Below are positions 4,193-22,042 of a stretch of 64,000 bases of DNA, piece by piece (within the stretch, counting starts at the first letter, position 1; each line of letters opens with the position of its first letter). Below the pieces are notes generated by a model that saw nothing but the letters and a program-made list of their open reading frames with translations, was not told the origin of the DNA and made no database searches. The stretch is taken from assembly GCA_016213435.1 (NCBI GenBank), contig JACRAL010000028.1:2196-66195 (forward strand). Direction: 5' to 3'. The position numbers and the translations under genes were made by a program. The stretch comes from Bacteroidota bacterium (GTDB lineage: Bacteria; Bacteroidota; Bacteroidia; Palsa-948).

Positions 4193-5443
4193 TTATTTTT
4201 TTTCATCTATACTGCTGGATCCACTATCTGTGAATGCGTCAAAGTCAAAAAGGAGAGTGAAACGAAGAGTATTTTGCAAAGGATTTCGCACATGTGTTGG
4301 AACAAGATAGGCAAAGTCCAGCGTAAAAACAGTATACCTCACGCCAAGGCCGAAAGTGAGGTACTTCCTCCCTCCTTTTGTATTTGCTTCGTTGAAATAA
4401 CCTGCACGCAGACAAAATTGTTTGGCGTACCAGTATTCCATTCCTCCTCCAATATTTATTTCGCGCATTTCTTCTGAAAATTTTCCAGGTGCATCAGAAA
4501 ATGAGCCGAGCATCCCGCTAACTACCCCCCGATGTGGGTCTTTTCCTTTATCAATGAGTTGGTTCCCTTGAGAATCTTTTATTGGATGTCCTGCAGAATC
4601 AGTAAGATATTTTGGAAGTGTTGGAACAAGAAGTTTATTAAAGTCCAGAGTAAGGTTTAGTTCATTGTATTCATCCAATTGCATATTGAGAGAGGTGCCC
4701 AATCTTAAATTGATAGGAATAAAATCTCTTTCACCGGTGGTGCTGTAAGAAATTTTTGATCCCATATTTGAAATGTTCATCCCTACGCGAACAATGGATT
4801 TTTTTCCGCTGATTTCTGTTTCACTACTTTGATAAAACCCGGAAATATCTGCTCCTACTGCTTGCCCGGAATGAGTAGGAGAACCTTCAACGGTAATATT
4901 GCTTGTGAGGTTTGAATGGATATAACGGATAGCACCTCCGCCTGAAAAATGATCTCCGAGTTTTTTCGCGTAACCAAGATCAAAAGCAAATTCGTTGGGA
5001 CGGAATTGACCAATCGTATTTCCAATAACATCAGTGAAAGTAATATCTCCAAGAGAAAAGTACCGGAGTGATGCTGCTATGGTTCCTGATTTTTTTAATT
5101 TGTAATAACCGGATAAATAGGCAAGATTGATATCGGGTACCAATGCACGTAACCATGGAGTATAGGACATGGATACACCTGTTTGTTTTTGAACAAATGC
5201 ATATTTAGAAGGATTCCAATGCATGGAATTCGCATCGGGAGAAGTGGCAACACCTGCATCACCCATGGCACCTGCACGCGAATCCGGAGAGATAAGCAGG
5301 AATGGCACCGAAGTGGTAATTGTATTTAGCTCATTATTTACATCTTGTCCGATTATAGTGGACTTGTTTTGTGCAAATGTAAAATCATAAAAGGAAACCT
5401 CTGAAAAAATCAGGATGGCAATTACTATTTTTTTAGCAGTCAT
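4193..5443 (-). CDS. FadL/OmpP1-like outer-membrane beta-barrel protein, possibly PorV/LptO family (T9SS)
   Basis: Signal peptide present. The FadL-type N-terminal hatch motif '..SRAGAMGDAGVATSPDANSMHWNPS' is present. The protein is 416 aa with an aromatic C-terminus typical of outer-membrane beta-barrels. Confidence 0.5.
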   Translation of the reverse strand: MTAKKIVIAILIFSEVSFYDFTFAQNKSTIIGQDVNNELNTITTSVPFLLISPDSRAGAMGDAGVATSPDANSMHWNPSKYAFVQKQTGVSMSYTPWLRALVPDINLAYLSGYYKLKKSGTIAASLRYFSLGDITFTDVIGNTIGQFRPNEFAFDLGYAKKLGDHFSGGGAIRYIHSNLTSNITVEGSPTHSGQAVGADISGFYQSSETEISGKKSIVRVGMNISNMGSKISYSTTGERDFIPINLRLGTSLNMQLDEYNELNLTLDFNKLLVPTLPKYLTDSAGHPIKDSQGNQLIDKGKDPHRGVVSGMLGSFSDAPGKFSEEMREINIGGGMEYWYAKQFCLRAGYFNEANTKGGRKYLTFGLGVRYTVFTLDFAYLVPTHVRNPLQNTLRFTLLFDFDAFTDSGSSSIDEKK

Positions 5444-5641
5444 GTTATATGCTATTTTTAAATTATAGCGAGAAGAACGTCAAAGATATATTATTATTGT
5501 TTCAAGTGGATGTGTTTTTTCTTAGAGTTTCTTGTAACACTTTTTTTCAGTTTTATTGACTAAAAGGTTTGAATTTTAGCGTATTTAGCATGAACCACCA
5601 AATAGAAACATGAGCAATTACTAAAAAGGAGATAAAAAAAA

Positions 5642-7117
5642 TCAAATCAGCCGAATAATAAAATCAGGAAAAATGCCCAATAGAAGAGCAAGCAGGATGG
5701 TGAGGATGAGAACAATTCTCAAGTCCCATCCAACCTCTGCGAAAGAGAGGAGTTCTCCCTTTTCTTCGACAGCTGTGGGTTGCGCCTGTAGGTCAGTTAG
5801 GGAGGGACTATACATTTTAATTATAATCCTGAAATAATAATACACCCCGATGAGTGAGCCAAGCACAGCAATCAGTACGAGCCAAACGTAACCACTTTGC
5901 AGCGCAGAGGTAAAAATGTAATATTTTCCAAAGAATCCGGCAAGCGGAGGAATTCCTGCGAGAGACAGCATGGAGATGGTCATGGCAAAGGATAGAAATT
6001 TATTTTGTTTTGCCAATCCGCTGAGTGTTTCAAAAGTAACAGTTGCTGGCTGTTGGTTGCGGGTAGCTTGATGATTCTCGATAATTGATAAAACGGTGAA
6101 TGCTCCAATCGTTGCAACTGAATAAGCAGCGGCATAGAACAGCACCGAACCCAAAGAATGATCGTTCATTGCAAGGATGGCAAGGAGCATGTATCCTGCA
6201 TGAGAAATACTGGAGTAAGCTAGCATTCGCTTAACACTTGTTTGATAAACGGCAGTGATGTTGCCAAGAAGGATTGTGAGAGCGGCAAGAACCCAGATAG
6301 TGTTCATCCACACGCTACCCATTCCTGAAAAACAAGTGAAGAATAGGCGGAGGAAAGCAGCGAAAGCAGCCGTCTTTACGATAGTTGCCATGAAAGCAGT
6401 TACAGGAGTAGGAGCACCAGTATAAACGTCAGGTGCCCAGAAATGAAATGGTACAGCTGAAATTTTGAAGCATAAACCAATCAGCATCATCAGTATACCT
6501 GCATACAATAATGGTTCTGCACCGGAAACTTTCCAGGTAGGAACCGTTGCTGAAGATGAAATAAAATAGCTGAGAGTTTTCAGGTCAAAAGTTCCGGTTG
6601 CACCATAGATGAGCGCAATTCCGAAGAGCAAAAATCCTGTAGCAAATGCACCCATCAGGAAATATTTCAACGAGGCTTCATTGGAAGAGAGAGAATCTTT
6701 TCTGCTTCCAGCAAGCACATACATCGGGATCGAAAGGATCTCAATGCCAAGGAAAAGCATCACCATGTTGGAATAAGATACCATGATCATTCCTCCGCAA
6801 AGGGCGAAGAGAACCAAAGCGTAATGATCGGTCTTGCTGGACCCGATAGCTATCGGGTCGCTGTCGAGAAAATTCTGCGACATCATAAACCAGAGAAAAG
6901 CAGTTGCGCAAAGCACAATAGTGAACAGAATGGCGAAATTATCGAACGTCATCATGTAATTGTAATAATGAATGTTCGTGTTCCAGTCTTTTACAGAAGA
7001 AGCAATCGCACCAAGCAATCCGATAAGTACGATTGGCAGCAAGAATTTTTTAAAGCGAAACATTTCCGCCAGCATTGCGATCACACCAAGAGCAGTGAGT
7101 ATGTACAGTGTCTTCAT
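5642..7117 (-). CDS. nuoN: NADH-quinone oxidoreductase subunit N
   Basis: 491-aa polytopic antiporter-like subunit; last gene of the nuo cluster. Confidence 0.9.
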   Translation of the reverse strand: MKTLYILTALGVIAMLAEMFRFKKFLLPIVLIGLLGAIASSVKDWNTNIHYYNYMMTFDNFAILFTIVLCATAFLWFMMSQNFLDSDPIAIGSSKTDHYALVLFALCGGMIMVSYSNMVMLFLGIEILSIPMYVLAGSRKDSLSSNEASLKYFLMGAFATGFLLFGIALIYGATGTFDLKTLSYFISSSATVPTWKVSGAEPLLYAGILMMLIGLCFKISAVPFHFWAPDVYTGAPTPVTAFMATIVKTAAFAAFLRLFFTCFSGMGSVWMNTIWVLAALTILLGNITAVYQTSVKRMLAYSSISHAGYMLLAILAMNDHSLGSVLFYAAAYSVATIGAFTVLSIIENHQATRNQQPATVTFETLSGLAKQNKFLSFAMTISMLSLAGIPPLAGFFGKYYIFTSALQSGYVWLVLIAVLGSLIGVYYYFRIIIKMYSPSLTDLQAQPTAVEEKGELLSFAEVGWDLRIVLILTILLALLLGIFPDFIIRLI

Positions 7118-8607
7118 AATATTACAGCCGGATGAATCAGTTCAACAATATGTTTTATTGCCGGTTCCGCAATGTCTAAAATTGGTTTCGGATAAACTCC
7201 CATTACTATTATCAATAACACGATTGGAACGAACACCGCTTTTTCATTAAAGTTTAAATCTGTAAAAGTTGAAGTAAGCGTATTTGTTTCTCCCAGCATA
7301 ATTTTCTGATAACTGCGAAGCATATACACTGCGCCAAGGATCACCGTAAGTCCGGCAAATCCTGCCATGTATGCATTGTATTGGTAAACTCCGTTTATGA
7401 GTAAGAATTCCCCGATGAAACCATTTGTGAGTGGAAGTGCAATGCTTCCAAGAAGAACAATCATGAACATGGTAGCAAAATATGGAATCACGTTTCGTAT
7501 TCCTCCGAATTTTGAAAGTTCTTGTGTTTGGGTGCGATTGAAAAGAATATCCACTACGAAGAATAATCCCACCACGTTAATTCCGTGTGCGAGCATCTGA
7601 ATCATTCCGCCTTGCAGTCCTTGTACTGTTAGAGAAAATATTCCTGCTGAAATTAATCCCACGTGAGCGATGGATGAATAAGCAATCAATCGTTTGAAAT
7701 CTTTTTGCATGATGGCAATGATCGATGCATAAAGAATACTTATGATAGAAAGAATCATTGCGGCATGTCCCCATTGCTGAACTCCGAGTGGAGCCATTGG
7801 CAATAGCCAGCGAATGAGCCCATAAGTTCCCATCTTCAGCATGATTCCAGAAAGAAGCATGGTGCCTTGTGTTGGTGCATTAGTATATGTATCCGGCTGC
7901 CATGTGTGAAATGGAAACACAGGCATCTTGATTGCAAATGCGATGAAAAGCGTCCAGAATATCCAGGTTTGTTCTGGAGAAGAAAGAGAAGATCCTGCAG
8001 AATATAATGCTTGAATATCGAAGGAGTGAGTTCCAGAAGTGTGAAGATAAAGATAGATAAGCCCAACCAGCATCAGCAAACTTCCAAAGAGTGTGTAAAC
8101 AAAAAACTTAAACGTGATGCGCGCGCGGTTTTCCCCGCCCCACAATAAACAAATGAACCAGATCGGAATCAGTGCGAGTTCCCAGAAGATGTAAAATAAA
8201 AATCCATCCATTGCTGTGAACACGCCCACCAACGCCATTTGCATAAAAAGAATGAGCGAATAAAAATACTTTGGATTCTTAATATCTCTGCTGAAGGAAG
8301 AAAGAATGATAAGGGGGACTAAAACAGTTGTAAGAAGCACAAGCAGGATACTGATACCATCCATCGCTACTTTGAAATGGATGCCGAGAGTTTGTATCCA
8401 AGCGAGGTTGACCATCATCTGAGGTTCTGCGTTGATTTTAAATTCAGATAAAGCGTAAATGGAAAGTATAAGCTCAATTAAGGAAAAAGCCAAAGCAAAT
8501 TTCTTCGCTTGTTCTGATTTTAAAAATAAAATCAACAAAGCAGCAACTAAAGGAAATCCTATGAGTATTGCAGTATTCATATTTTTTTTAGTTCGTCTTG
8601 CGAACAA
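7114..8607 (-). CDS. nuoM: NADH-quinone oxidoreductase subunit M
   Basis: 497-aa antiporter-like subunit with a 4-nt overlap with nuoN. Confidence 0.9.
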   Translation of the reverse strand: MFARRTKKNMNTAILIGFPLVAALLILFLKSEQAKKFALAFSLIELILSIYALSEFKINAEPQMMVNLAWIQTLGIHFKVAMDGISILLVLLTTVLVPLIILSSFSRDIKNPKYFYSLILFMQMALVGVFTAMDGFLFYIFWELALIPIWFICLLWGGENRARITFKFFVYTLFGSLLMLVGLIYLYLHTSGTHSFDIQALYSAGSSLSSPEQTWIFWTLFIAFAIKMPVFPFHTWQPDTYTNAPTQGTMLLSGIMLKMGTYGLIRWLLPMAPLGVQQWGHAAMILSIISILYASIIAIMQKDFKRLIAYSSIAHVGLISAGIFSLTVQGLQGGMIQMLAHGINVVGLFFVVDILFNRTQTQELSKFGGIRNVIPYFATMFMIVLLGSIALPLTNGFIGEFLLINGVYQYNAYMAGFAGLTVILGAVYMLRSYQKIMLGETNTLTSTFTDLNFNEKAVFVPIVLLIIVMGVYPKPILDIAEPAIKHIVELIHPAVIL

Positions 8608-13246: not shown

Positions 13247-14266
13247 CTACTGATTATTCGGATTCATCACACCTTGTCCGAGTGCAAATTTACTTTCTTT
13301 CAGATGTTTCTGATGCTTTTCTATATCTGATCTTAAATTTTCCAATGCTTTTTCTGTTTCGTAATGATTTGCCGAGATCACAGAATGATGATCAACATGC
13401 GAAGGCGTTTCTAAAACCCAATCACTTGTTTTCTTGTGGTCGAATCTACAAGAGTTGCATATCCAGTCTTCCACTTCTCCGTATTTATCTTTTCTCGCTG
13501 TAACGCGAAGAACTTCTTCCCCCTTATACCATAAACGAACTTTTCCGGAGCACTTATCGCAGGTGCGATGTGCATCTACAGGTTTTGTAAACCACACACG
13601 GCTTTTGAACCGGAAAGTTTTATCGGTGAGTGCACCAACAGGGCAAACATCGATCATGTTTCCGCTCATGTCTTTGTCAACAACATTCTCAATATAAGTT
13701 GAAATTTCAGCTACATCTCCTCGGTTGATCACGCCATGATTTCTGCAGGAACAAAGCTGATCGGCAACTTTCACACAGCGGTAGCATAAAATGCAGCGCG
13801 TCATGTGAAGTTTAATTTTATCTCCGATGTCTATTTTTTCAAATTCCCTGCGCTTGAATTCATAGCGCGTTTTCATTTTTCCGTGCTCGTAGCCCAGATC
13901 CTGAAGATGACATTCTCCCGCCTGGTCACATATCGGGCAATCGAGCGGATGATTGATCAAAAGAAACTCAGTAATACCGGCTCTTGCTTCCACCACTTCA
14001 GGTGAAGTGATGTTTTCAACCTCCATTCCATCCATGACTGTTTGGCGGCAGGATGGAACTAATTTCGGCATAGGGCGCGGATCTTTTTCAGAACCTTTTG
14101 ACACTTTCACCAAACATGTTCTGCAATAGCCGCCACTCGTTTTTAACTTGGAATAATAGCACATCGCAGGCGGAACAATATCTCCACCGATCATACGTGC
14201 GGCATTTAGGATCGTTGTTCCTTCAGGAACTTCAATTGATTTGCCGTCTATGGTAACTTTAGGCAT
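13247..14266 (-). CDS. nuoG: NADH-quinone oxidoreductase subunit G, short form (2Fe-2S + 4Fe-4S N-terminal domains only)
   Basis: N-terminal 2Fe-2S ferredoxin fold, followed by 'CPICDQAGEC' and 'CILCYRC' clusters. The 339-aa length lacks the molybdopterin-like domain. Confidence 0.85.
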   Translation of the reverse strand: MPKVTIDGKSIEVPEGTTILNAARMIGGDIVPPAMCYYSKLKTSGGYCRTCLVKVSKGSEKDPRPMPKLVPSCRQTVMDGMEVENITSPEVVEARAGITEFLLINHPLDCPICDQAGECHLQDLGYEHGKMKTRYEFKRREFEKIDIGDKIKLHMTRCILCYRCVKVADQLCSCRNHGVINRGDVAEISTYIENVVDKDMSGNMIDVCPVGALTDKTFRFKSRVWFTKPVDAHRTCDKCSGKVRLWYKGEEVLRVTARKDKYGEVEDWICNSCRFDHKKTSDWVLETPSHVDHHSVISANHYETEKALENLRSDIEKHQKHLKESKFALGQGVMNPNNQ

Positions 14267-14270
14267 ATTG

Positions 14271-14933
14271 CTAATTAATCTTTCCTTCTACAATTAATCC
14301 TTTTATTCCATCATTAAACTTCTTTTTGTTTCCATAAGAAGGATGAGGAACTTTATGGCAATTTATTTTTAATTGTTTCAGAATATCTTCTGCTGCGTTC
14401 CCAACAGCAACTACATTTTTAATCTTATAAAGTTCAAGTAATTTAGTTAAATATTTTTTCCCTATTTCAATCTCTGACTGTGTTGGCTTTCTGTTTTTTT
14501 TAGTATTTGGATCAAATGGATTGTAAGGGAATGCATTCCAAAGTAAAGGGCAAAAATTTAAATTAATAAGTGTATTCCAAACCATAGTCGCAGTTTTTTC
14601 TTTTTGAAGATTCTCGTTCAGTTTTACTGTTTTTCCATTCATTTCTATTTCTTTAGGAAACCCAAACAAATCAAATGAATTTATTTTTGACATAATGTTT
14701 TCACTTGTAAAAGGGATACCTGTAATTGCACATCCATCTTTTCCTGGTGCTTCTCCTACAAATAAAGTTTTTGGTTTTTTTTCTTTCATTTGGGTCAAAT
14801 AAACTAACAAATTCATTCTTGTAGTGAAGTACTGAGGAAAATTATCGTCTTCATGATAAAAATTAAAAACCTTTGACTTATCAACTTTCTGTTTTGATAA
14901 TTGGTCAATGAATTTTTCTATATTTTCTGCCAT
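14271..14933 (-). CDS. Uracil-DNA glycosylase superfamily protein (family 4/5-like motifs, no Fe-S cysteines), inserted between nuoF and nuoG
   Basis: Motif A 'GEAPG' ('VGEAPGKDGCAITGIPF') and motif B 'HPSYGN' near the C-terminus match the UDG-superfamily fold. It is tightly packed between nuoF (end overlaps) and nuoG (4-nt gap). Confidence 0.6.
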   Translation of the reverse strand: MAENIEKFIDQLSKQKVDKSKVFNFYHEDDNFPQYFTTRMNLLVYLTQMKEKKPKTLFVGEAPGKDGCAITGIPFTSENIMSKINSFDLFGFPKEIEMNGKTVKLNENLQKEKTATMVWNTLINLNFCPLLWNAFPYNPFDPNTKKNRKPTQSEIEIGKKYLTKLLELYKIKNVVAVGNAAEDILKQLKINCHKVPHPSYGNKKKFNDGIKGLIVEGKIN

Positions 14934-16273
14934 TATGCTTCCTGCAATTTATTTATCCTATAATAATGCTTCACATCCGTCATGTATTTCCCTTTCTTCA
15001 CATATTCTTCAAACTCGCTTCTGAAATGGCGGATGGCTGCAGCCACAGGCCACGCAGCAGCTTCGCCCAGCGGACAAATTGTTTTGCCTTCAATTTTTCC
15101 TTGTATATCCCAGAGCAGATCAATGTCAGCCATTGTTGCGCGTCCTTCCAGAAATTTATGGAGAATTTTTTCCATCCATCCTGTTCCTTCGCGGCAGGGA
15201 GAACATTGTCCGCAACTTTCATGATGATAGAAGCGTGTGAAGTTCCAGAGATTTTTTACGATGCTGGTATCTTCGTCCATCACAATGAAACCTCCTGAGC
15301 CAAGCATGGTTCCGGTTTGGAAACCTCCTTCAGAAAGTGATTCGTAAGACATTAATCTTGGTTCGCCTTTAGCAGTTTTTAGGATGAGTTCAGCAGGAAG
15401 GATTGGCACCGAAGAACCTCCTGCCACCACTGCTTTCAGTTTTTTTCCATTACGGATTCCTCCGCAATAATCATCGGAATAAATAAATTCTTCTACCGGT
15501 ACTCCGAGTTCAATTTCGTAAACGCCCGGTTTATTAATATGTCCTGAAGCTGAAATTAATTTTGTTCCGGTTGATTTTCCGATCCCGATCTTGGCATATT
15601 CATCACCGCTGTTATTGACGATCCACGCAACATTGGCAAGAGATTCCACATTATTAACTACAGTGGGGCATCCATATAAGCCTACTACAGCAGGAAACGG
15701 AGGTTTGATTCTTGGATTTCCTCTTTTTCCCTCCAGCGATTCGATCAATCCTGTTTCTTCTCCGCAGATGTATGCGCCTGCTCCGCAGTGAACGTGTAGA
15801 TCCAGATCATATCCGCTTCCTAAAATATTTTTTCCGAGATACCCTGCATCGTATGCTTCCTGAATTGCTTTTTCGAGGATATGAAACACATACATCATTT
15901 CTCCTCTTATATATACGTAGGAAGTATTAGCACCCAAAGCAAAAGAAGAAATGATCATACCTTCTATAAGGATATGTGGTTTCTTCTCCATTAAATAACG
16001 ATCCTTGAAAGTTCCAGGCTCAGATTCATCGGCATTGCAAACAAGGTAGCGCGGAACTCCGGGAGGTTTCGCAATGAAACTCCATTTCATTCCCATCGGG
16101 AATCCTGCACCGCCTCTTCCACGAATGCCCGATTTTTTCACCTCTTCTACAATCTCTTCGGGCTTCATCTTCAGCGCTTTTTCAATAGCGGTATATCCGC
16201 CATGCGCTTTGTAACCGGCAAGTGTGTCGATGCCTGCTTTATCTAAATCGTTTATGAGAATCTGTTTACTCAT
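14933..16273 (-). CDS. nuoF: NADH-quinone oxidoreductase subunit F (NADH-binding, FMN, 4Fe-4S)
   Basis: 'GRGGAGFP' FMN/NADH motif and C-terminal 'CGQCSPCREG' 4Fe-4S motif. Confidence 0.9.
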   Translation of the reverse strand: MSKQILINDLDKAGIDTLAGYKAHGGYTAIEKALKMKPEEIVEEVKKSGIRGRGGAGFPMGMKWSFIAKPPGVPRYLVCNADESEPGTFKDRYLMEKKPHILIEGMIISSFALGANTSYVYIRGEMMYVFHILEKAIQEAYDAGYLGKNILGSGYDLDLHVHCGAGAYICGEETGLIESLEGKRGNPRIKPPFPAVVGLYGCPTVVNNVESLANVAWIVNNSGDEYAKIGIGKSTGTKLISASGHINKPGVYEIELGVPVEEFIYSDDYCGGIRNGKKLKAVVAGGSSVPILPAELILKTAKGEPRLMSYESLSEGGFQTGTMLGSGGFIVMDEDTSIVKNLWNFTRFYHHESCGQCSPCREGTGWMEKILHKFLEGRATMADIDLLWDIQGKIEGKTICPLGEAAAWPVAAAIRHFRSEFEEYVKKGKYMTDVKHYYRINKLQEA

Positions 16274-16316: not shown

Positions 16317-16913
16317 TTATTGATGAATATCCGTATGATGCTTAATTCTTTCTTTTCTCCAGTGAGAAACATCTTCCCCTTTGTTTTTGTATTCGTCCAG
16401 AATAGTATCGCATTTTTCAAAAGTCAGATTCTCGTGATATTTTTCTCCTATCTGCATCATGGGTGCTGTTCCGCAGGATGCAAGGCACTCCACGGTTTTC
16501 AATGTAAACATCCCGTCAGGAGTTGTTTGTCCTTCTTTGATGCCTAATTTTTTTTCGATGAACTTTACCAGATCTTCAGCGCCCATCAGCCAGCAAGGTC
16601 CGGTTCGGCAAACTTCAATTACACATTTGCCAACAGGCTTTAGGTTGAACATGGAATAGAAAGAAGCTACTTCATAAACTTCAACAGGTTGAATCTTCAG
16701 AAGTGTAGCTACGTAATCCATCACTTCAACACTTAACCATCCGTTGAATTCTGCTTGGGCAATATGAAGAATAGGGAGGATGGCAGACTTCTGCCTTTTG
16801 TCCGGATAACGCTTCATTATCTTCTCTGCGAGAGCAAGAGCATCGTCTGAAAATCTCACATGCTTCTTGCCGGAATATTTTGAAGCGGATGGATCCTGTT
16901 GCATAGGCGACAA
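16317..16913 (-). CDS. nuoE: NADH-quinone oxidoreductase subunit E (24 kDa, thioredoxin-like 2Fe-2S)
   Basis: 'CRTGPCW...CLASCGTAP' Cys pattern of NuoE; first gene of the cluster in this window. Confidence 0.85.
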   Translation of the reverse strand: MSPMQQDPSASKYSGKKHVRFSDDALALAEKIMKRYPDKRQKSAILPILHIAQAEFNGWLSVEVMDYVATLLKIQPVEVYEVASFYSMFNLKPVGKCVIEVCRTGPCWLMGAEDLVKFIEKKLGIKEGQTTPDGMFTLKTVECLASCGTAPMMQIGEKYHENLTFEKCDTILDEYKNKGEDVSHWRKERIKHHTDIHQ

Positions 16914-17126: not shown

Positions 17127-17543
17127 ATGAACAAGAACGAAATAAACTCTAGTAAAGCCCCGGAACCGGTCGGTTTATATCCTCATGCGAGGAAAGTGGG
17201 AAATCTGCTCTTTCTTTCTGGTGTTGGCCCCCGTGAAAGAGGAAGCAAAAAAATTCCGGGCGTTGAACTGAACGCCAAAGGCAAGATTGTAACCTATAAT
17301 ATAGAAGAACAATGCCACAGTGTTTTTAAGAATGTGAAATATATTCTGGAGGAAGCGGGCAGCAGCTGGGATAAGATCGTGGATGTAACGGTTTATCTGA
17401 CGAATATGAAAGATGATTTTCCTAAGTATAATAAATTGTGGGCGGAGTATTTTGCAAATAATCCTCCTTGCCGCACCACGCTTGAAATAAATTGTTTGCC
17501 CACTCCCATTGCGATTGAATTGAAAGTGGTTGCTACTATATAA
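17127..17543 (+). CDS. ridA: RidA/YjgF-family reactive-intermediate deaminase
   Basis: 138 aa with the conserved YjgF/chorismate-mutase-like pattern; abuts ileS. Confidence 0.85.
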   Translation: MNKNEINSSKAPEPVGLYPHARKVGNLLFLSGVGPRERGSKKIPGVELNAKGKIVTYNIEEQCHSVFKNVKYILEEAGSSWDKIVDVTVYLTNMKDDFPKYNKLWAEYFANNPPCRTTLEINCLPTPIAIELKVVATI

Positions 17544-20500
17544 ATGAGTAAATACACAGAATATAAAAACCTGAACCTTCCCGAAATAGGAAAGGAAATT
17601 CTTGATCTGTGGGAGAAAAACCACACCTTTGAAAAGAGCGTTACCTCGCGTGAAGGAGCTGAGCCCTTTGTTTTTTATGAAGGACCTCCATCAGCCAACG
17701 GCATGCCCGGCATTCATCACGTGATGGCACGAACCATAAAGGATTTATTCTGCCGTTACCAGACTTTAAAAGGAAAACAGGTAAAACGTAAAGCGGGTTG
17801 GGACACGCACGGGCTTCCGATCGAATTGGCGGTGGAAAAAACCTTAGGCATCACCAAGGAAGACATCGGAAAAAAAATCTCCATTGAAGATTACAACAAG
17901 GCATGCAGGACAGAGGTGATGAAGTATCAGGACAAATGGGAAGAAGTTACCCGTTTGATGGGATATTGGGTGGACATGAAACATCCGTATGTCACTTACG
18001 AAAACAATTACATCGAAAGTGTTTGGTGGCTGCTGAAAAAACTGTACGACAAAAAACTATTATATAAAGGATATACCATTCAGCCGTATTCTCCTGCTGC
18101 GGGAACGGGATTGAGTACGCATGAATTGAACCAACCGGGATGTTACAGGAATGTGAGGGATACGACTGCTGTGGCAATGTTCCGCCTCATCCCCAACCCT
18201 TCTCCGAAGGAGAAGGGAGAAATCCTCTCCTTTGGAGAGGATTTAGGTGAGGCGTATTTTCTTGCGTGGACGACAACTCCTTGGACTCTACCTTCGAATA
18301 CAGCCTTGGCTGTAGGAAAGAACATCAATTATGTTTTGATTGCTACCTTTAATCGTTTTACGTGGAAGAAATGTTTTGTGATTCTCGCGGAGGATTTATT
18401 TGGGAAGTATTTTCAGCGAATTGCAATTATTGGAAATTATACAGAAGAAGAAATTTTCAAAATACAAAACCCGTCTATTGCAGAGGCATTAAACCGCTTA
18501 GACAATCATCCGAAAGAGAAGAGAATTATTAACGGGCACGAATTAATCGGAGTTATTGTCTCAAGATTCACAGGAAAAGATATCGAAGGAATCCACTACG
18601 AACAACTTCTCCCTTTTAAAGCAAATGAAAAAGTGGAGTTGAACGGCAAACTCCTCCCCTTTGGGGAGGCGGGAGGGGCCGTTATTCTTGGAGATTTCGT
18701 TACCACCGAAGACGGAACCGGAATCGTTCACATAGCTCCAAGTTTTGGCGCGGATGACTTTAGAGTTGCGAAACAAAACGGAATTGGTTCGCTTACGCTG
18801 GTTGACAGGCGCGGAAAATTTTTTCCGGAAGTAAGAGATGATGTTTTTCTCTATGGAGACGAGTATGTGAAAGCAGAATATCTCACGGATACAGAAAAGC
18901 AAATTGAATTCCAAAAACAAAAAAAAGTTTTAGAAGCAGCTGGAAAAATTAAAGAACTGAAAGAATATCTAAGCGTTGATGAGCGCATTGTGCTGAAACT
19001 TCAGGAAGAAGGAAAGCTTTTTAAAAAAGAAAAATACGAGCACAGCTATCCTCATTGCTGGCGCACGGACAAACCTATTTTATATTATCCGCTTGACAGT
19101 TGGTTCGTGAAAGTGACTGAGTACAAAGACAGAATGGTAGAACTCAATAAAACCATCAACTGGAAACCGGCACATACAGGTACAGGGCGTTTTGGTGAGT
19201 GGCTGAACAATTTGCAGGATTGGAATTTGTCGCGCTCGCGCTTCTGGGGAATTCCGCTTCCGATCTGGAGAACAGAAGATGGCAAGGAAGAAAAAATTAT
19301 TGGTTCGGTGGATGATTTGAGAAAGGAAGTTAATAAAGCAGTACAGTCTGGTTTTATGAAGGTGTCCCCCTTTGAAGGGAGTGAGGAGGATGTGGATTTA
19401 CACAAACCGTATATCGACAGAGTATTTCTTGTTTCCGATTCAGGGAAAAAAATGACTCGTGAGTCAGATCTGATTGATGTCTGGTTCGATTCAGGCGCAA
19501 TGCCCTATGCTCAATGGCATTATCCGTTCGAAAATAAAGAAATGATTGATTCTCTCCCCTCTCCTGTGGGAGAGGGGTCTGGGGTGAGGCGGACCGGGGC
19601 TGCTTTCCCTGCCGACTTTATTGCAGAAGGAGTTGACCAAACCCGTGGATGGTTTTACACACTTCACGCTATTGCAGCTTTGTGTTTTGATTCGGTCGCT
19701 TATAAAAATGTGCTGAGCAATGGGTTGGTACTTGACAAGAATGGAAACAAGATGAGCAAACGCCTCGGCAATGCCGTTGATCCGTTCTCCACGCTTGAAA
19801 AATATGGTCCCGATGCGGTGCGCTGGTACATGGTCACAAATGCCGATCCTTGGGATAATTTAAAATTTGATTTGGAAGGAGTAGCAGAAAAGCAAAGAAG
19901 TTTTTTCGGAACGCTTTATAATACCTATGCTTTCTTTGCCCTTTATGCGAACATTGACAATTTCTCTTTTAAAGAAAAAGAAATTCCATTAAAAGACAAA
20001 CCCGAAATTGACCGATGGATTTTGTCAGAACTCAATTCGCTGATAAAATCGGTGGATGAAAGTTACAGCAGTTATGAGCCAACAAAAGCAGGCAGAGCGA
20101 TCGAAACTTTTGTGGACGAGCATTTGAGTAATTGGTATGTTCGTTTGTGCAGAAGGAGATTCTGGAAAGGAGAATACACACAGGATAAAATTTCTGCTTA
20201 TCAAACCTTATATCGTTGTCTGGAAGTGGTTGCGCAGCTTTCTTCGCCTATTGCACCTTTCTTCTGCGAGAAATTATTTAAAGACCTGAACGATATAACC
20301 GGAAGACAGAAAGCGGAGAGCGTGCATCTGAGTTTATTTCCAAAGATGGATGAGAGCTCTATTGATAAACCGCTGGAAGAGAGAATGGAAATAGCTCAGA
20401 AAATTTCTTCGATGATTCTTTCTATCCGGAAAAAGGAAAATATCCGTGTTCGTCAGCCACTTACAAAGATTCGAGTTCCGATATTGGATGATTCGTTCAA

Positions 20501-21134
20501 GAAAAAGCTGGAGCTTGTGAAAGATTTGATCCTTTCGGAAGTAAATGTAAAGGAGATTGAATATGTTGGAGAAGACGATGTACAAATCGTGAAAAACCTG
20601 AAGCTGAATTTCAAAACACTAGGTAAGAAATGTGGCAAACACATGAAAGCTGTTCAAGCGCATGCAACCGATCCTATTTATGCAAAACTTATTATCCAAT
20701 CTATTTCAAAAAATGATAGTTACGAAATAAAAATAGAGAACGAAACAATAGAACTTCTTCCTGAAGATGTTGAGATCATTCCGGTTGACATTCCGGGCTG
20801 GAAAGTGGCTAACAGCGGTGCGCTTACGGTCGCACTTGACATCACGCTTACCGAAAAATTAAAGGAGGAAGGAATAGCAAGGGAAATCGTAAATCGCATT
20901 CAGAATCTGCGAAAAGAGAAGAAATTTGAGGTTACAGATAAGATAGAAGTAAGGATAAAAGATCACAAGAAAATAAATTCAGCCATTTTAAATAATTTAG
21001 ATTACATTCGCGCGGAAATTTTGGCAAATACGTTTGAGATCGTCAGCGAGATTAATGGAAACGGCATTGAGATTGAAGTAGATGAAGAGATAAAAACAAT
21101 GGTCGAGATTGACCGCATTAAACAGTTAAACTAA
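17544..21134 (+). CDS. ileS: Isoleucine--tRNA ligase, carrying three in-frame palindromic-element insertions
   Basis: HIGH-type motif 'PSANGMPGIHH', 'WTTTPWTLP', 'WNLSRSRFWG' and KMSKS 'KMSKRLGN'. The 1196-aa length is about 50 aa longer than usual, owing to the GC-rich inserts. Confidence 0.95.
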   Translation: MSKYTEYKNLNLPEIGKEILDLWEKNHTFEKSVTSREGAEPFVFYEGPPSANGMPGIHHVMARTIKDLFCRYQTLKGKQVKRKAGWDTHGLPIELAVEKTLGITKEDIGKKISIEDYNKACRTEVMKYQDKWEEVTRLMGYWVDMKHPYVTYENNYIESVWWLLKKLYDKKLLYKGYTIQPYSPAAGTGLSTHELNQPGCYRNVRDTTAVAMFRLIPNPSPKEKGEILSFGEDLGEAYFLAWTTTPWTLPSNTALAVGKNINYVLIATFNRFTWKKCFVILAEDLFGKYFQRIAIIGNYTEEEIFKIQNPSIAEALNRLDNHPKEKRIINGHELIGVIVSRFTGKDIEGIHYEQLLPFKANEKVELNGKLLPFGEAGGAVILGDFVTTEDGTGIVHIAPSFGADDFRVAKQNGIGSLTLVDRRGKFFPEVRDDVFLYGDEYVKAEYLTDTEKQIEFQKQKKVLEAAGKIKELKEYLSVDERIVLKLQEEGKLFKKEKYEHSYPHCWRTDKPILYYPLDSWFVKVTEYKDRMVELNKTINWKPAHTGTGRFGEWLNNLQDWNLSRSRFWGIPLPIWRTEDGKEEKIIGSVDDLRKEVNKAVQSGFMKVSPFEGSEEDVDLHKPYIDRVFLVSDSGKKMTRESDLIDVWFDSGAMPYAQWHYPFENKEMIDSLPSPVGEGSGVRRTGAAFPADFIAEGVDQTRGWFYTLHAIAALCFDSVAYKNVLSNGLVLDKNGNKMSKRLGNAVDPFSTLEKYGPDAVRWYMVTNADPWDNLKFDLEGVAEKQRSFFGTLYNTYAFFALYANIDNFSFKEKEIPLKDKPEIDRWILSELNSLIKSVDESYSSYEPTKAGRAIETFVDEHLSNWYVRLCRRRFWKGEYTQDKISAYQTLYRCLEVVAQLSSPIAPFFCEKLFKDLNDITGRQKAESVHLSLFPKMDESSIDKPLEERMEIAQKISSMILSIRKKENIRVRQPLTKIRVPILDDSFKKKLELVKDLILSEVNVKEIEYVGEDDVQIVKNLKLNFKTLGKKCGKHMKAVQAHATDPIYAKLIIQSISKNDSYEIKIENETIELLPEDVEIIPVDIPGWKVANSGALTVALDITLTEKLKEEGIAREIVNRIQNLRKEKKFEVTDKIEVRIKDHKKINSAILNNLDYIRAEILANTFEIVSEINGNGIEIEVDEEIKTMVEIDRIKQLN

Positions 21135-21145
21135 TTTTTATCACC

Positions 21146-22042
21146 ATGGCAAAAGCAAAAAAGAAGGCAAAAGCCAAAGCAAAACCGGTTAAAAAGGTTA
21201 AGAAAGCTGCTTCAAAAAAGACAAAGAAAGTAACAGCAAAGAAGGCTGTTAAGAAAAAGGCTGTAAAAAAGAAACCCGTGGCGAAGAAAGCGGCTGCAAA
21301 GAAAAAAAACCTTGCGAAGAAAAAAACTGCAAAAGCGATAAAGAAGAAAGCTGTTAAGAAAGTTGTTGTGAAAAAAGCAACGAAGAAGGCCACTATAAAA
21401 GCAAAGCCTATTTCCAAGAAGGAAGAGAAAAGATTAAAAGCCATTCAGCATGCAATTCCTGTTCTTCCTTTAAAACCAATCCTTGAGGAGAAGCCGGAGA
21501 AAGAAAAAAAGAAAACCAAAGAAGAATTAGCCGAAGAGCGCGAACTGTTGGGAGAAGAAACTTATTCATGGGACAGCGGTACTTTTTCTGACATGAAAAA
21601 TTATGAACCACTTCCTGTATTCAGAAAGCCGGATCCTCCGCAACCAAAATTTAAAGGCAAGCCGGATAAGCGTACTCGTTATTCTGATAAAGAACTGAGT
21701 GAATTCAGAGGGATTATAAATGAGAAAATTGCCGAAGCAGAACGCGATTATGAACTTTTGAAGAACACGCTTGCTCATCGTGGTGAGCATGGCACGGATG
21801 ATACATCCCCCACTTTCAAAGTCTTGGAAGATGGATCGGACGCAATGTCGCGTGAAGAGATTGCTCAGCTTGCATCCCGTCAGGAACGTCATATTCAAAA
21901 TCTTAAGAATGCCCTTATCCGTATTGCAAATAAGACCTATGGAATTTGCCGTGTAACCGGAAAACTCATTCCGAAAGAAAGATTGCGCAGCGTTCCTCAT
22001 GCCACGCTCAGCATAGAAGCTAAACTGACGCAGAACTCTTAA
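21146..22042 (+). CDS. TraR/DksA-family protein with an N-terminal lysine/alanine-rich histone-H1-like tail
   Basis: The N-terminal ~115 aa are AKKA/KKAV repeats. The C-terminus, 'ELSEFRGIINEKIAEAE...YGICRVTGKLIPKERLRSVPHATLSIEAK', matches the DksA/TraR coiled-coil plus zinc-finger-like domain. The gene lies between ileS and lspA, the conserved position of the dksA-like gene. Confidence 0.7.
   Translation: MAKAKKKAKAKAKPVKKVKKAASKKTKKVTAKKAVKKKAVKKKPVAKKAAAKKKNLAKKKTAKAIKKKAVKKVVVKKATKKATIKAKPISKKEEKRLKAIQHAIPVLPLKPILEEKPEKEKKKTKEELAEERELLGEETYSWDSGTFSDMKNYEPLPVFRKPDPPQPKFKGKPDKRTRYSDKELSEFRGIINEKIAEAERDYELLKNTLAHRGEHGTDDTSPTFKVLEDGSDAMSREEIAQLASRQERHIQNLKNALIRIANKTYGICRVTGKLIPKERLRSVPHATLSIEAKLTQNS

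Follow-up and report, generated by a model that had tools for sequence, protein, structure and literature searches.

A SMUG-like DNA glycosylase gene, probably a passenger, between nuoF and nuoG of a Bacteroidota complex I operon

Locus and gene layout

In this study we describe a gene of the uracil-DNA glycosylase (UDG) superfamily that lies between nuoF and nuoG, two genes of respiratory complex I, in a Bacteroidota bacterium (GenBank assembly GCA_016213435.1). The window, by which we mean the whole stretch of DNA that was analysed, is 64,000 nucleotides (nt) long and covers positions 2,196 to 66,195 of contig JACRAL010000028.1. A preliminary description had placed here an open reading frame (ORF) of 220 amino acids (aa) with the motifs GEAPG and HPSYGN, overlapping the stop codon of nuoF and separated from nuoG by a gap of 4 nt. 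The coordinates, the motifs and the Pfam domains of the flanking genes agree with that description, and so do both borders when they are read from the sequence. The nuoF stop TAA occupies 14935-14933 and the ATG of the ORF 14933-14931, with the base A in common, which makes a 1-nt overlap; on the other side the stop TAG of the ORF ends at 14271 and the ATG of nuoG starts at 14266. The features of the locus are the following:

14271..14933, minus strand: UDG-superfamily ORF, the putative inserted cargo gene; ATG start, 220 aa (ORF listing, Pfam PF03167)
14933..16273, minus strand: nuoF, flank upstream of the cargo ORF; Pfam Complex1_51K, SLBB, NADH_4Fe-4S; GC content 43%
13247..14266, minus strand: short-form nuoG (339 aa), flank downstream of the cargo ORF; Pfam Fer2_4, NADH-G_4Fe-4S_3, Fer4_Nqo3; GC content 43%
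14933..14935, minus strand: nuoF stop TAA sharing one base with the cargo ATG (TAATG), read from the sequence
14267..14270, minus strand: spacer of 4 nt (coding strand CAAT) from the cargo TAG to the nuoG ATG, read from the sequence
14742..14756, minus strand: motif A GEAPG, residues 60-64, checked by hand; family-4-type motif core
14709..14720, minus strand: GIPF, residues 72-75, invariant in 24 homologues; F75 is the predicted base-stacking aromatic
14526..14540, minus strand: WNAFP, residues 132-136; N133 is invariant and the predicted base-reading, water-coordinating Asn (motif 3)
14328..14345, minus strand: HPSYGN (motif B), residues 197-202; H197 is predicted to stabilise the leaving group

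An independent Logan contig of 1,439 bp (run SRR12113407) carries the 3' end of nuoF, the ORF and the 5' end of nuoG at 100% identity. Because it covers both junctions, the layout is not an artefact of a metagenome-assembled genome (MAG), and an assembly chimera is excluded as well.

Placement among the uracil-DNA glycosylases

The protein is a true member of the UDG superfamily, as the preliminary description had proposed. The Pfam model PF03167 (UDG) matches it with 52 bits against a cut-off of 24.3 (E 1e-13), and its AlphaFold2 model (pLDDT 95.6, pTM 0.90) retrieved only UDG-superfamily structures when it was compared with the PDB by Foldseek. The top 17 of these were SMUG1 or SMUG2. SMUG1 of Xenopus, human and Geobacter ranked first (E 1.9e-10 to 1e-7, TM score 0.61-0.68), followed by SMUG2 (0.68-0.69) and then by UdgX and family 4 (0.45-0.55). 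A profile made from the alignment of 24 homologues (33-67% identity) was compared with solved structures too. Its best match was again SMUG1 (1oe4, E 4.5e-7), over residues 43-199 and thus nearly full length, with family-4 UDGs second over residues 140-190 only (E 7e-5 to 5e-4); for Pedobacter SMUG2 the match comprised the motif-A region only (residues 42-84, E 1.4e-4).

The protein fits none of the biochemically defined or curated UDG families that we tested, in line with the earlier suggestion of an unclassified UDG-like family. The four-cysteine iron-sulphur (Fe-S) signature of family 4 is absent, a point already made in the preliminary description, because the protein has only three cysteines (C68, C127, C192) and none of them is invariant across the 24 homologues. 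The NCBIfam models for family 4 (TIGR00758, 35.1 bits against a cut-off of 125.3) and for archaeal Udg (NF040953, 28.7 bits against 250) both stayed below threshold, and their matches were limited to residues 146-196. The UdgX model TIGR03914 reached 13.4 bits against a cut-off of 189.95, and the motif reads GEAPG instead of GEQPG; UdgX is defined by the GEQPG motif together with the R-loop KRRIH (PMC10359453). An acid UDG of the DR0022 type is excluded by motif 1, which opens with Leu in that family (LEAP; PMC9796141) and with Gly (GEAP) in our protein and in all its homologues. A likeness to DUF4918, which had been considered before, was not borne out, as no DUF4918 match appeared among the Pfam hits at E <= 1.

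SMUG1, the family-3 enzyme (Xenopus 1OE4/1OE5, human 9GK0, Geobacter 5H93), is the closest known relative by sequence profile and by fold. The extended motif-A loop of our protein (GEAPGKDGCAITGIPF) aligns without gaps with that of SMUG1 (GMNPGPFGMAQTGVPF), and both proteins have a 16-residue motif-A block of the spacing G-x-x-P-G-x-x-G-x-x-x-T-G-[IV]-P-F, in which GIPF aligns to the TGVPF of SMUG1 at an equal distance from motif A. Both have the motif-3 Asn and an HPS motif B, and neither has an Fe-S cluster. However, the two proteins are only 17-21% identical, ours is about 25 residues shorter and the RMSD over the full alignment is about 7 Å. Motif A also departs from SMUG1: the protein has GEAPG where SMUG1 has GMNPG, so that Ala62 aligns with the catalytic Asn. 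SMUG2 of Pedobacter heparinus (5H0J/5H0K), which is likewise from Bacteroidota, has a similar fold (rmsd ~4 Å) but is only 14% identical. The family-4 enzymes UDGa (S. tokodaii 4ZBX, T. maritima 1L9G/1VK2, T. thermophilus 1UI0) share the GE[AG]PG core and the HPS motif B, whereas their four-Cys [4Fe-4S] site is missing here and the fold match is weaker. The protein is hence a hybrid: it combines a SMUG-like fold and a SMUG-like motif-A loop with a family-4-type motif-A core (Glu-Ala for Met-Asn), and it has no Fe-S cluster.

Linkage to complex I

The preliminary description had regarded the pairing of a glycosylase with complex I as possibly functional, with a non-repair role tied to respiration. 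For comparison we took the genomes whose NuoF is most similar (the best 80 of at least 597; 75-93% identity) and mapped NuoF, NuoG and the glycosylase at every locus by tblastn; 68 of the loci had both nuoF and nuoG. None of the 68 relatives carries the UDG-like gene at the nuoF-nuoG junction. In the closest relative (locus L004, NuoF and NuoG both 93% identical) the junction is a mere 7 nt long (TAA-TTATTAA-ATG), and in the three closest relatives (L004, L005 and L006, the latter two with 86% and 82% NuoF identity) 2-7 nt separate the nuoF stop from the nuoG start. The converse comparison, made at 99 loci of homologues of the glycosylase (6 from exact look-ups, 80 metagenomic and 13 from IMG/VR), found a nuo operon in none; the sole match was a NuoE-like gene, 34% identical, which lay about 7 kb off at a single locus.

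The composition of the gene sets it apart from its surroundings. Its GC content is 28.5%, the lowest of the 55 genes in the window, which average 40.6 +/- 3.8% (z = -3.2), and at third codon positions the value is 20.5% compared with 39.9% (z = -2.9). The closest homologues (55-65% identity) sit on contigs of 33-38% GC, which fits a low-GC donor. Together, composition and synteny indicate that the gene is a horizontally acquired, recent and strain-specific passenger, seen in one genome. The proposed functional link with complex I is therefore unsupported, and the pairing looks accidental. The preliminary description had named a recent and strain-specific insertion with mobile-element flanks as speaking against its proposal; a recent and strain-specific insertion is what we found here, but no mobile-element flanks were found.

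We searched the borders of the insert for traces of its arrival and detected no target-site duplication and no direct or inverted repeats above chance. There is no recombinase nearby; the neighbouring ORFs are nuo subunits, with 0 and 4 nt flanking the ORF. On the coding strand no terminator-like site was found within or adjoining the insert, and a promoter search at the borders gave nothing above chance. An integron cassette was considered and excluded, because only 4 nt remain before nuoG and these leave no room for an attC site.

The nuo junctions as landing sites

In 24 of the 68 relatives the nuoF-nuoG junction is occupied as well, by other genes. The inserts measure 280-1,690 bp and belong to about 12 unrelated sequence families (judged by the largest ORF); the junctions lie at roughly positions 5330-7030 of the loci (L004-L083) and at 14267-14935 of the window. 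According to Pfam they encode Polbeta/NTP_transf_2 nucleotidyltransferases and HepT RNases (MNT-HepT toxin-antitoxin), Uma2 restriction-endonuclease-like proteins, ORF6N-domain proteins, 23S_rRNA_IVP four-helix-bundle and Zn_ribbon_TFIIB proteins, and several secreted proteins with a TonB_C domain. For two other types Pfam gave no match, a protein of about 280 aa with a predicted signal peptide (six loci) and one of 554 aa. All Pfam-supported cargo ORFs lie on the nuo strand and are tightly packed, and most of them are lower in GC than nuoF.

Other junctions of the operon are occupied less often: nuoE-nuoF in 10 of 76 cases, nuoG-nuoH in 4 of 66, nuoH-nuoI in 3 of 63 and nuoI-nuoJ in 0 of 55. 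When empty, the nuoF-nuoG spacer has a median length of 56 nt, compared with about 1 nt at nuoE-nuoF and nuoG-nuoH, and this longer spacer may explain why insertions are tolerated best between nuoF and nuoG. An example from nuoG-nuoH is given by the closest relative, L004, in which a di-haem cytochrome c of 334 aa (6361-7365, plus strand; two CxxCH motifs, Pfam Cytochrom_C) overlaps both flanking genes; the corresponding junction in the window measures only 25 nt. Since L004 lacks the UDG gene and carries a cytochrome c that is absent from the window, the content of these junctions turns over even between near neighbours. In this clade of Bacteroidota, unrelated co-oriented genes thus land repeatedly at nuo junctions, above all at nuoF-nuoG.

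A search of the literature for a precedent of ORFs within nuo operons yielded nothing usable. In the early 1990s Xu, Matsuno-Yagi and Yagi reportedly noted unidentified reading frames inside the nqo (complex I) cluster of Paracoccus denitrificans. These are said to be co-oriented non-subunit ORFs between complex I structural genes, as here; however, they are from another phylum, are different genes and are said to be conserved among alphaproteobacteria, whereas the cargo described here varies from genome to genome.

Against this background a partnership with complex I can be judged. The glycosylase might be co-expressed with the NADH-oxidising module in order to repair pyrimidines oxidised by respiratory reactive oxygen species, or it might be an accessory or assembly factor. 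SMUG-type enzymes do remove oxidised uracils, the gene is tightly packed in the operon with its start and stop coupled to nuoF and nuoG, and some of the other junction cargo, such as the cytochrome c of L004, could plausibly be a respiratory accessory. Yet neither the related junctions nor the homologue loci show any linkage, the closest relative does without the gene and its composition is foreign. In other genomes this junction is filled by genes for toxin-antitoxin systems, nucleases and secreted proteins, which follow no respiratory logic. We therefore regard such a partnership as extremely improbable.

Size and spread of the subfamily

The protein belongs to a widespread, large and uncharacterised branch of the UDG superfamily. 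When 1.84 billion representatives were searched exhaustively with a profile, 673 proteins came back at E <= 1e-30 (representatives at 50% identity clustering) and 1,401 at E <= 1e-10; almost all of them, at 200-230 aa, matched over their full length. A word-indexed search with a profile of the closest clade found at least 2,539 clusters (90% identity) at E <= 1e-20. The hosts include Cyanobacteria, Firmicutes (Tissierella, Terrilactibacillus, Paenibacillus, Epulopiscium), a nanoarchaeal MAG and many metagenomes, and where the databases name the protein they use the generic label 'uracil-DNA glycosylase'. Identity to the protein of the window exceeds 45% in only about ten cases.

Viruses contribute little to this diversity. 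Only 13 IMG/VR contigs encode members of the subfamily, at 26-37% identity. A fold search of BFVD gave generic UDG folds only, with TM scores below 0.5, many of which are domains of phage DNA polymerases, and no close viral relative was seen in that search. In PHROGs the protein found a chance-level match only.

Active site and inferred chemistry

Across the 24 homologues the residues G60-E61-A62, G67, G72-I73-P74-F75, E112, W119, N133, P136, P139, N147 and H197-P198 are invariant, and S199 is nearly so. N133 aligns to the Asn of 'VHNHCP' in SMUG1, and the motif B HPSYGN to HPSPRN. The invariance of E61, F75, N133 and H197 argues for purifying selection on the active site. In family 4, N89 (base recognition and water) and H155 (leaving group) are the analogues of N133 and H197 (PMC5387724). 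By this analogy a uracil or a 5-substituted-uracil-type base would be flipped out of the DNA and F75 would stack on it; N133 would read the Watson-Crick face of the base and position the water, and H197 would stabilise the leaving base. The product of excision would be an abasic site.

Because the residues at the catalytic positions are conserved, the protein is most likely an active monofunctional glycosylase. Its predicted pocket, with the Asn in motif 3 and the SMUG-like loop, favours uracil or 5-substituted uracils over cytosine derivatives. It might instead be that the UDG fold is catalytically dead and that the protein serves as a DNA- or uracil-binding protein, or is a decaying passenger, with no enzymatic role. 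The Ala in motif A, at the place of the catalytic Asn of SMUG1, could be read in this way, and non-canonical UDG-fold proteins do exist, for example UdgX, which cross-links to DNA (PMC4787834). However, the ORF is intact and of full length, and every residue that is invariant in the family has been kept. The Glu-Ala pattern in motif A is the normal pattern of active family-4 enzymes (PMC5387724, PMC10359453). Moreover, a subfamily of thousands of clusters has been conserved across phyla, which argues for a selected activity. A dead fold hence appears very unlikely to us.

Repair or antiphage defence

Whether the protein acts in repair or in antiphage defence is a question on which the evidence is split. 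Members of the wider subfamily tend to be solitary genes in ordinary neighbourhoods with a GC content like that of their surroundings (median difference of gene minus surroundings -0.003), and we count this for housekeeping repair. In Tissierella, for example, the gene stands alone in an ordinary chromosomal neighbourhood. The cyanobacterial members (L180, L181, L185) share a conserved neighbourhood: CRR42-like and CbiX-like genes lie upstream of them and the gene of the NAD-dependent DNA ligase (ligA) is a few kb off, as would suit a resident housekeeping gene of this phylum. Among 118 immediate neighbours 12 are MoaA (Radical_SAM and Mob_synth_C), all from one clade of high-GC soil metagenome loci (L090-L152). 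This adjacency is probably lineage-specific synteny; apart from moaA the count of neighbour families revealed no consistent partner. PADLOC reported 'viperin' matches among the neighbours about as often as there are radical-SAM (MoaA) neighbours, and these matches are probably radical-SAM cross-hits.

A different role would be that of a Brig-like antiphage glycosylase, which would excise a modified base (5-hydroxymethyluracil or a hypermodified thymidine) from phage DNA and leave abasic sites that block replication. Such a role competes only with repair and is compatible with a hitch-hiking gene at this position. The fold is SMUG-like, and SMUG1 naturally handles 5-substituted uracils, which we count in favour of defence. 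Defence-type genes lie no more than three genes away in all three informative contexts of the closest clade (55-65% identity); they comprise a type I restriction HsdR (PADLOC REase_I, E = 0), PDC-S26 and the gene of an SLFN/AlbA_2-HATPase protein that matches pAgo-associated models. Stand-alone defences of the UDG superfamily are known in Brig1 (PMC11078745), Brig2 (10.1101/2025.10.29.685425) and Brig3 (10.64898/2026.02.25.707755), which are, like our protein, single-gene UDG-fold proteins. Homologues of Brig2 are reported from Bacteroidetes, in A/T-rich, recently acquired regions (10.1101/2025.10.29.685425). The low GC content of our gene relative to its surroundings and its apparent horizontal transfer match these contexts, and the restriction and other defence genes beside its close homologues add to the likeness with the Brig proteins.

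However, three contexts are too few to speak of enrichment, and the wider subfamily, with a GC content equal to its surroundings, is found mostly in housekeeping neighbourhoods (moaA and the conserved cyanobacterial synteny). The copy in the window lies in a respiratory operon and not in a defence island. PADLOC gave no match for the protein itself, although that library is of 2023 and predates the Brig proteins, and no Brig entry was among the top 50 fold matches in the PDB. Brig1 differs in having a Glu at the pocket position (PMC11078745), where our protein has the uracil-type Asn of motif 3. We consider a defence role possible, though on balance unlikely.

Further features of the window

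The nuo cluster of the window begins as follows:

16317-16913, minus strand: nuoE, first gene of the cluster

Upstream of nuoE lie a divergent plus-strand ORF of 138 aa (17127-17543) and a plus-strand ORF of 1,196 aa (17544-21134) that resembles class I aminoacyl-tRNA synthetases and shows a KMSKR motif. Because these divergent genes stand directly upstream of nuoE, nuoA-D are not contiguous with nuoE-N in the window. NuoG is of a short form (about 320-340 aa) both here and in all relatives; it comprises the N-terminal Fe-S domains only and lacks the C-terminal molybdopterin-like domain, and it matches positions 1-300 of the 606 of model TIGR01973 with a score below the cut-off.

Further along the plus strand, an ORF of 298 aa (21146-22042) is extremely rich in Lys and Ala in its N-terminal half, in the manner of histone H1, and its C-terminal end resembles, by eye only, a zinc finger of the DksA/TraR type. 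A mirror ORF on the opposite strand (21118-21444), rich in Phe and Ala, is probably spurious.

Discussion

In this study we characterised a glycosylase gene that is likely, in our view, to be an intact, horizontally acquired and promoter-less stand-alone gene hitch-hiking in an insertion-tolerant junction. It would have entered a single Bacteroidota lineage at the short spacer between nuoF and nuoG, and its position would reflect the tolerance of this junction for co-oriented passengers and not a partnership with complex I. The cargo gene would be transcribed from the nuo promoter and would be translationally coupled through the TAATG overlap upstream and the 4 nt before nuoG, and because of this the operon would not be broken. 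It may have been inserted illegitimately, after which selection favoured non-polar, co-oriented and terminator-free layouts. Alternatively, an unsampled relative might have supplied the gene by allelic exchange across the conserved flanks nuoF and nuoG.

Several points weigh against this account. The insert has no recognisable scars, and so neat an ORF-only insert could instead be older and streamlined, or could indeed derive from allelic exchange with a relative. With the best 80 of at least 597 NuoF relatives inspected, the same layout could exist in other genomes. Fold, motif conservation, strain specificity and foreign composition come from the data themselves, but activity, substrate, co-transcription and the use of the protein for repair or against phage are all inferred. 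Finally, motif A has neither the Asn of SMUG1 nor the Asp of UNG, so that a family-4-style chemistry would have to operate on a SMUG-like fold.

A bolder reading joins two proposals. The subfamily, with its SMUG fold, GEAPG motif and lack of an Fe-S cluster, could form a new UDG family in which the low-GC clade of Bacteroidota might be Brig-like, and at the same time nuoF-nuoG, and to a smaller extent other nuo junctions, could be an undescribed scar-less integration hotspot in Bacteroidota. That both should be true together strikes us as doubtful. If the hotspot is real, promoter-less genes for toxin-antitoxin systems, nucleases, glycosylases and secreted proteins would gain constitutive expression from a core respiratory operon. 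If the defence role is real, the low-GC Bacteroidota clade would be aimed at phage DNA with 5-substituted uracils (modified thymidines).

For the question of complex I our result is mostly deflationary: the pairing would be an accident of insertion and does not add a new functional link. The substrate range of the subfamily is worth testing, given the recent discovery of defence glycosylases of the Brig type. With about a third of the nuoF-nuoG junctions holding differing, co-oriented and scar-less passengers, this clade offers a natural example of operon hitch-hiking, and nuoF-nuoG lends itself to studies of the gain and exchange of promoter-less genes.

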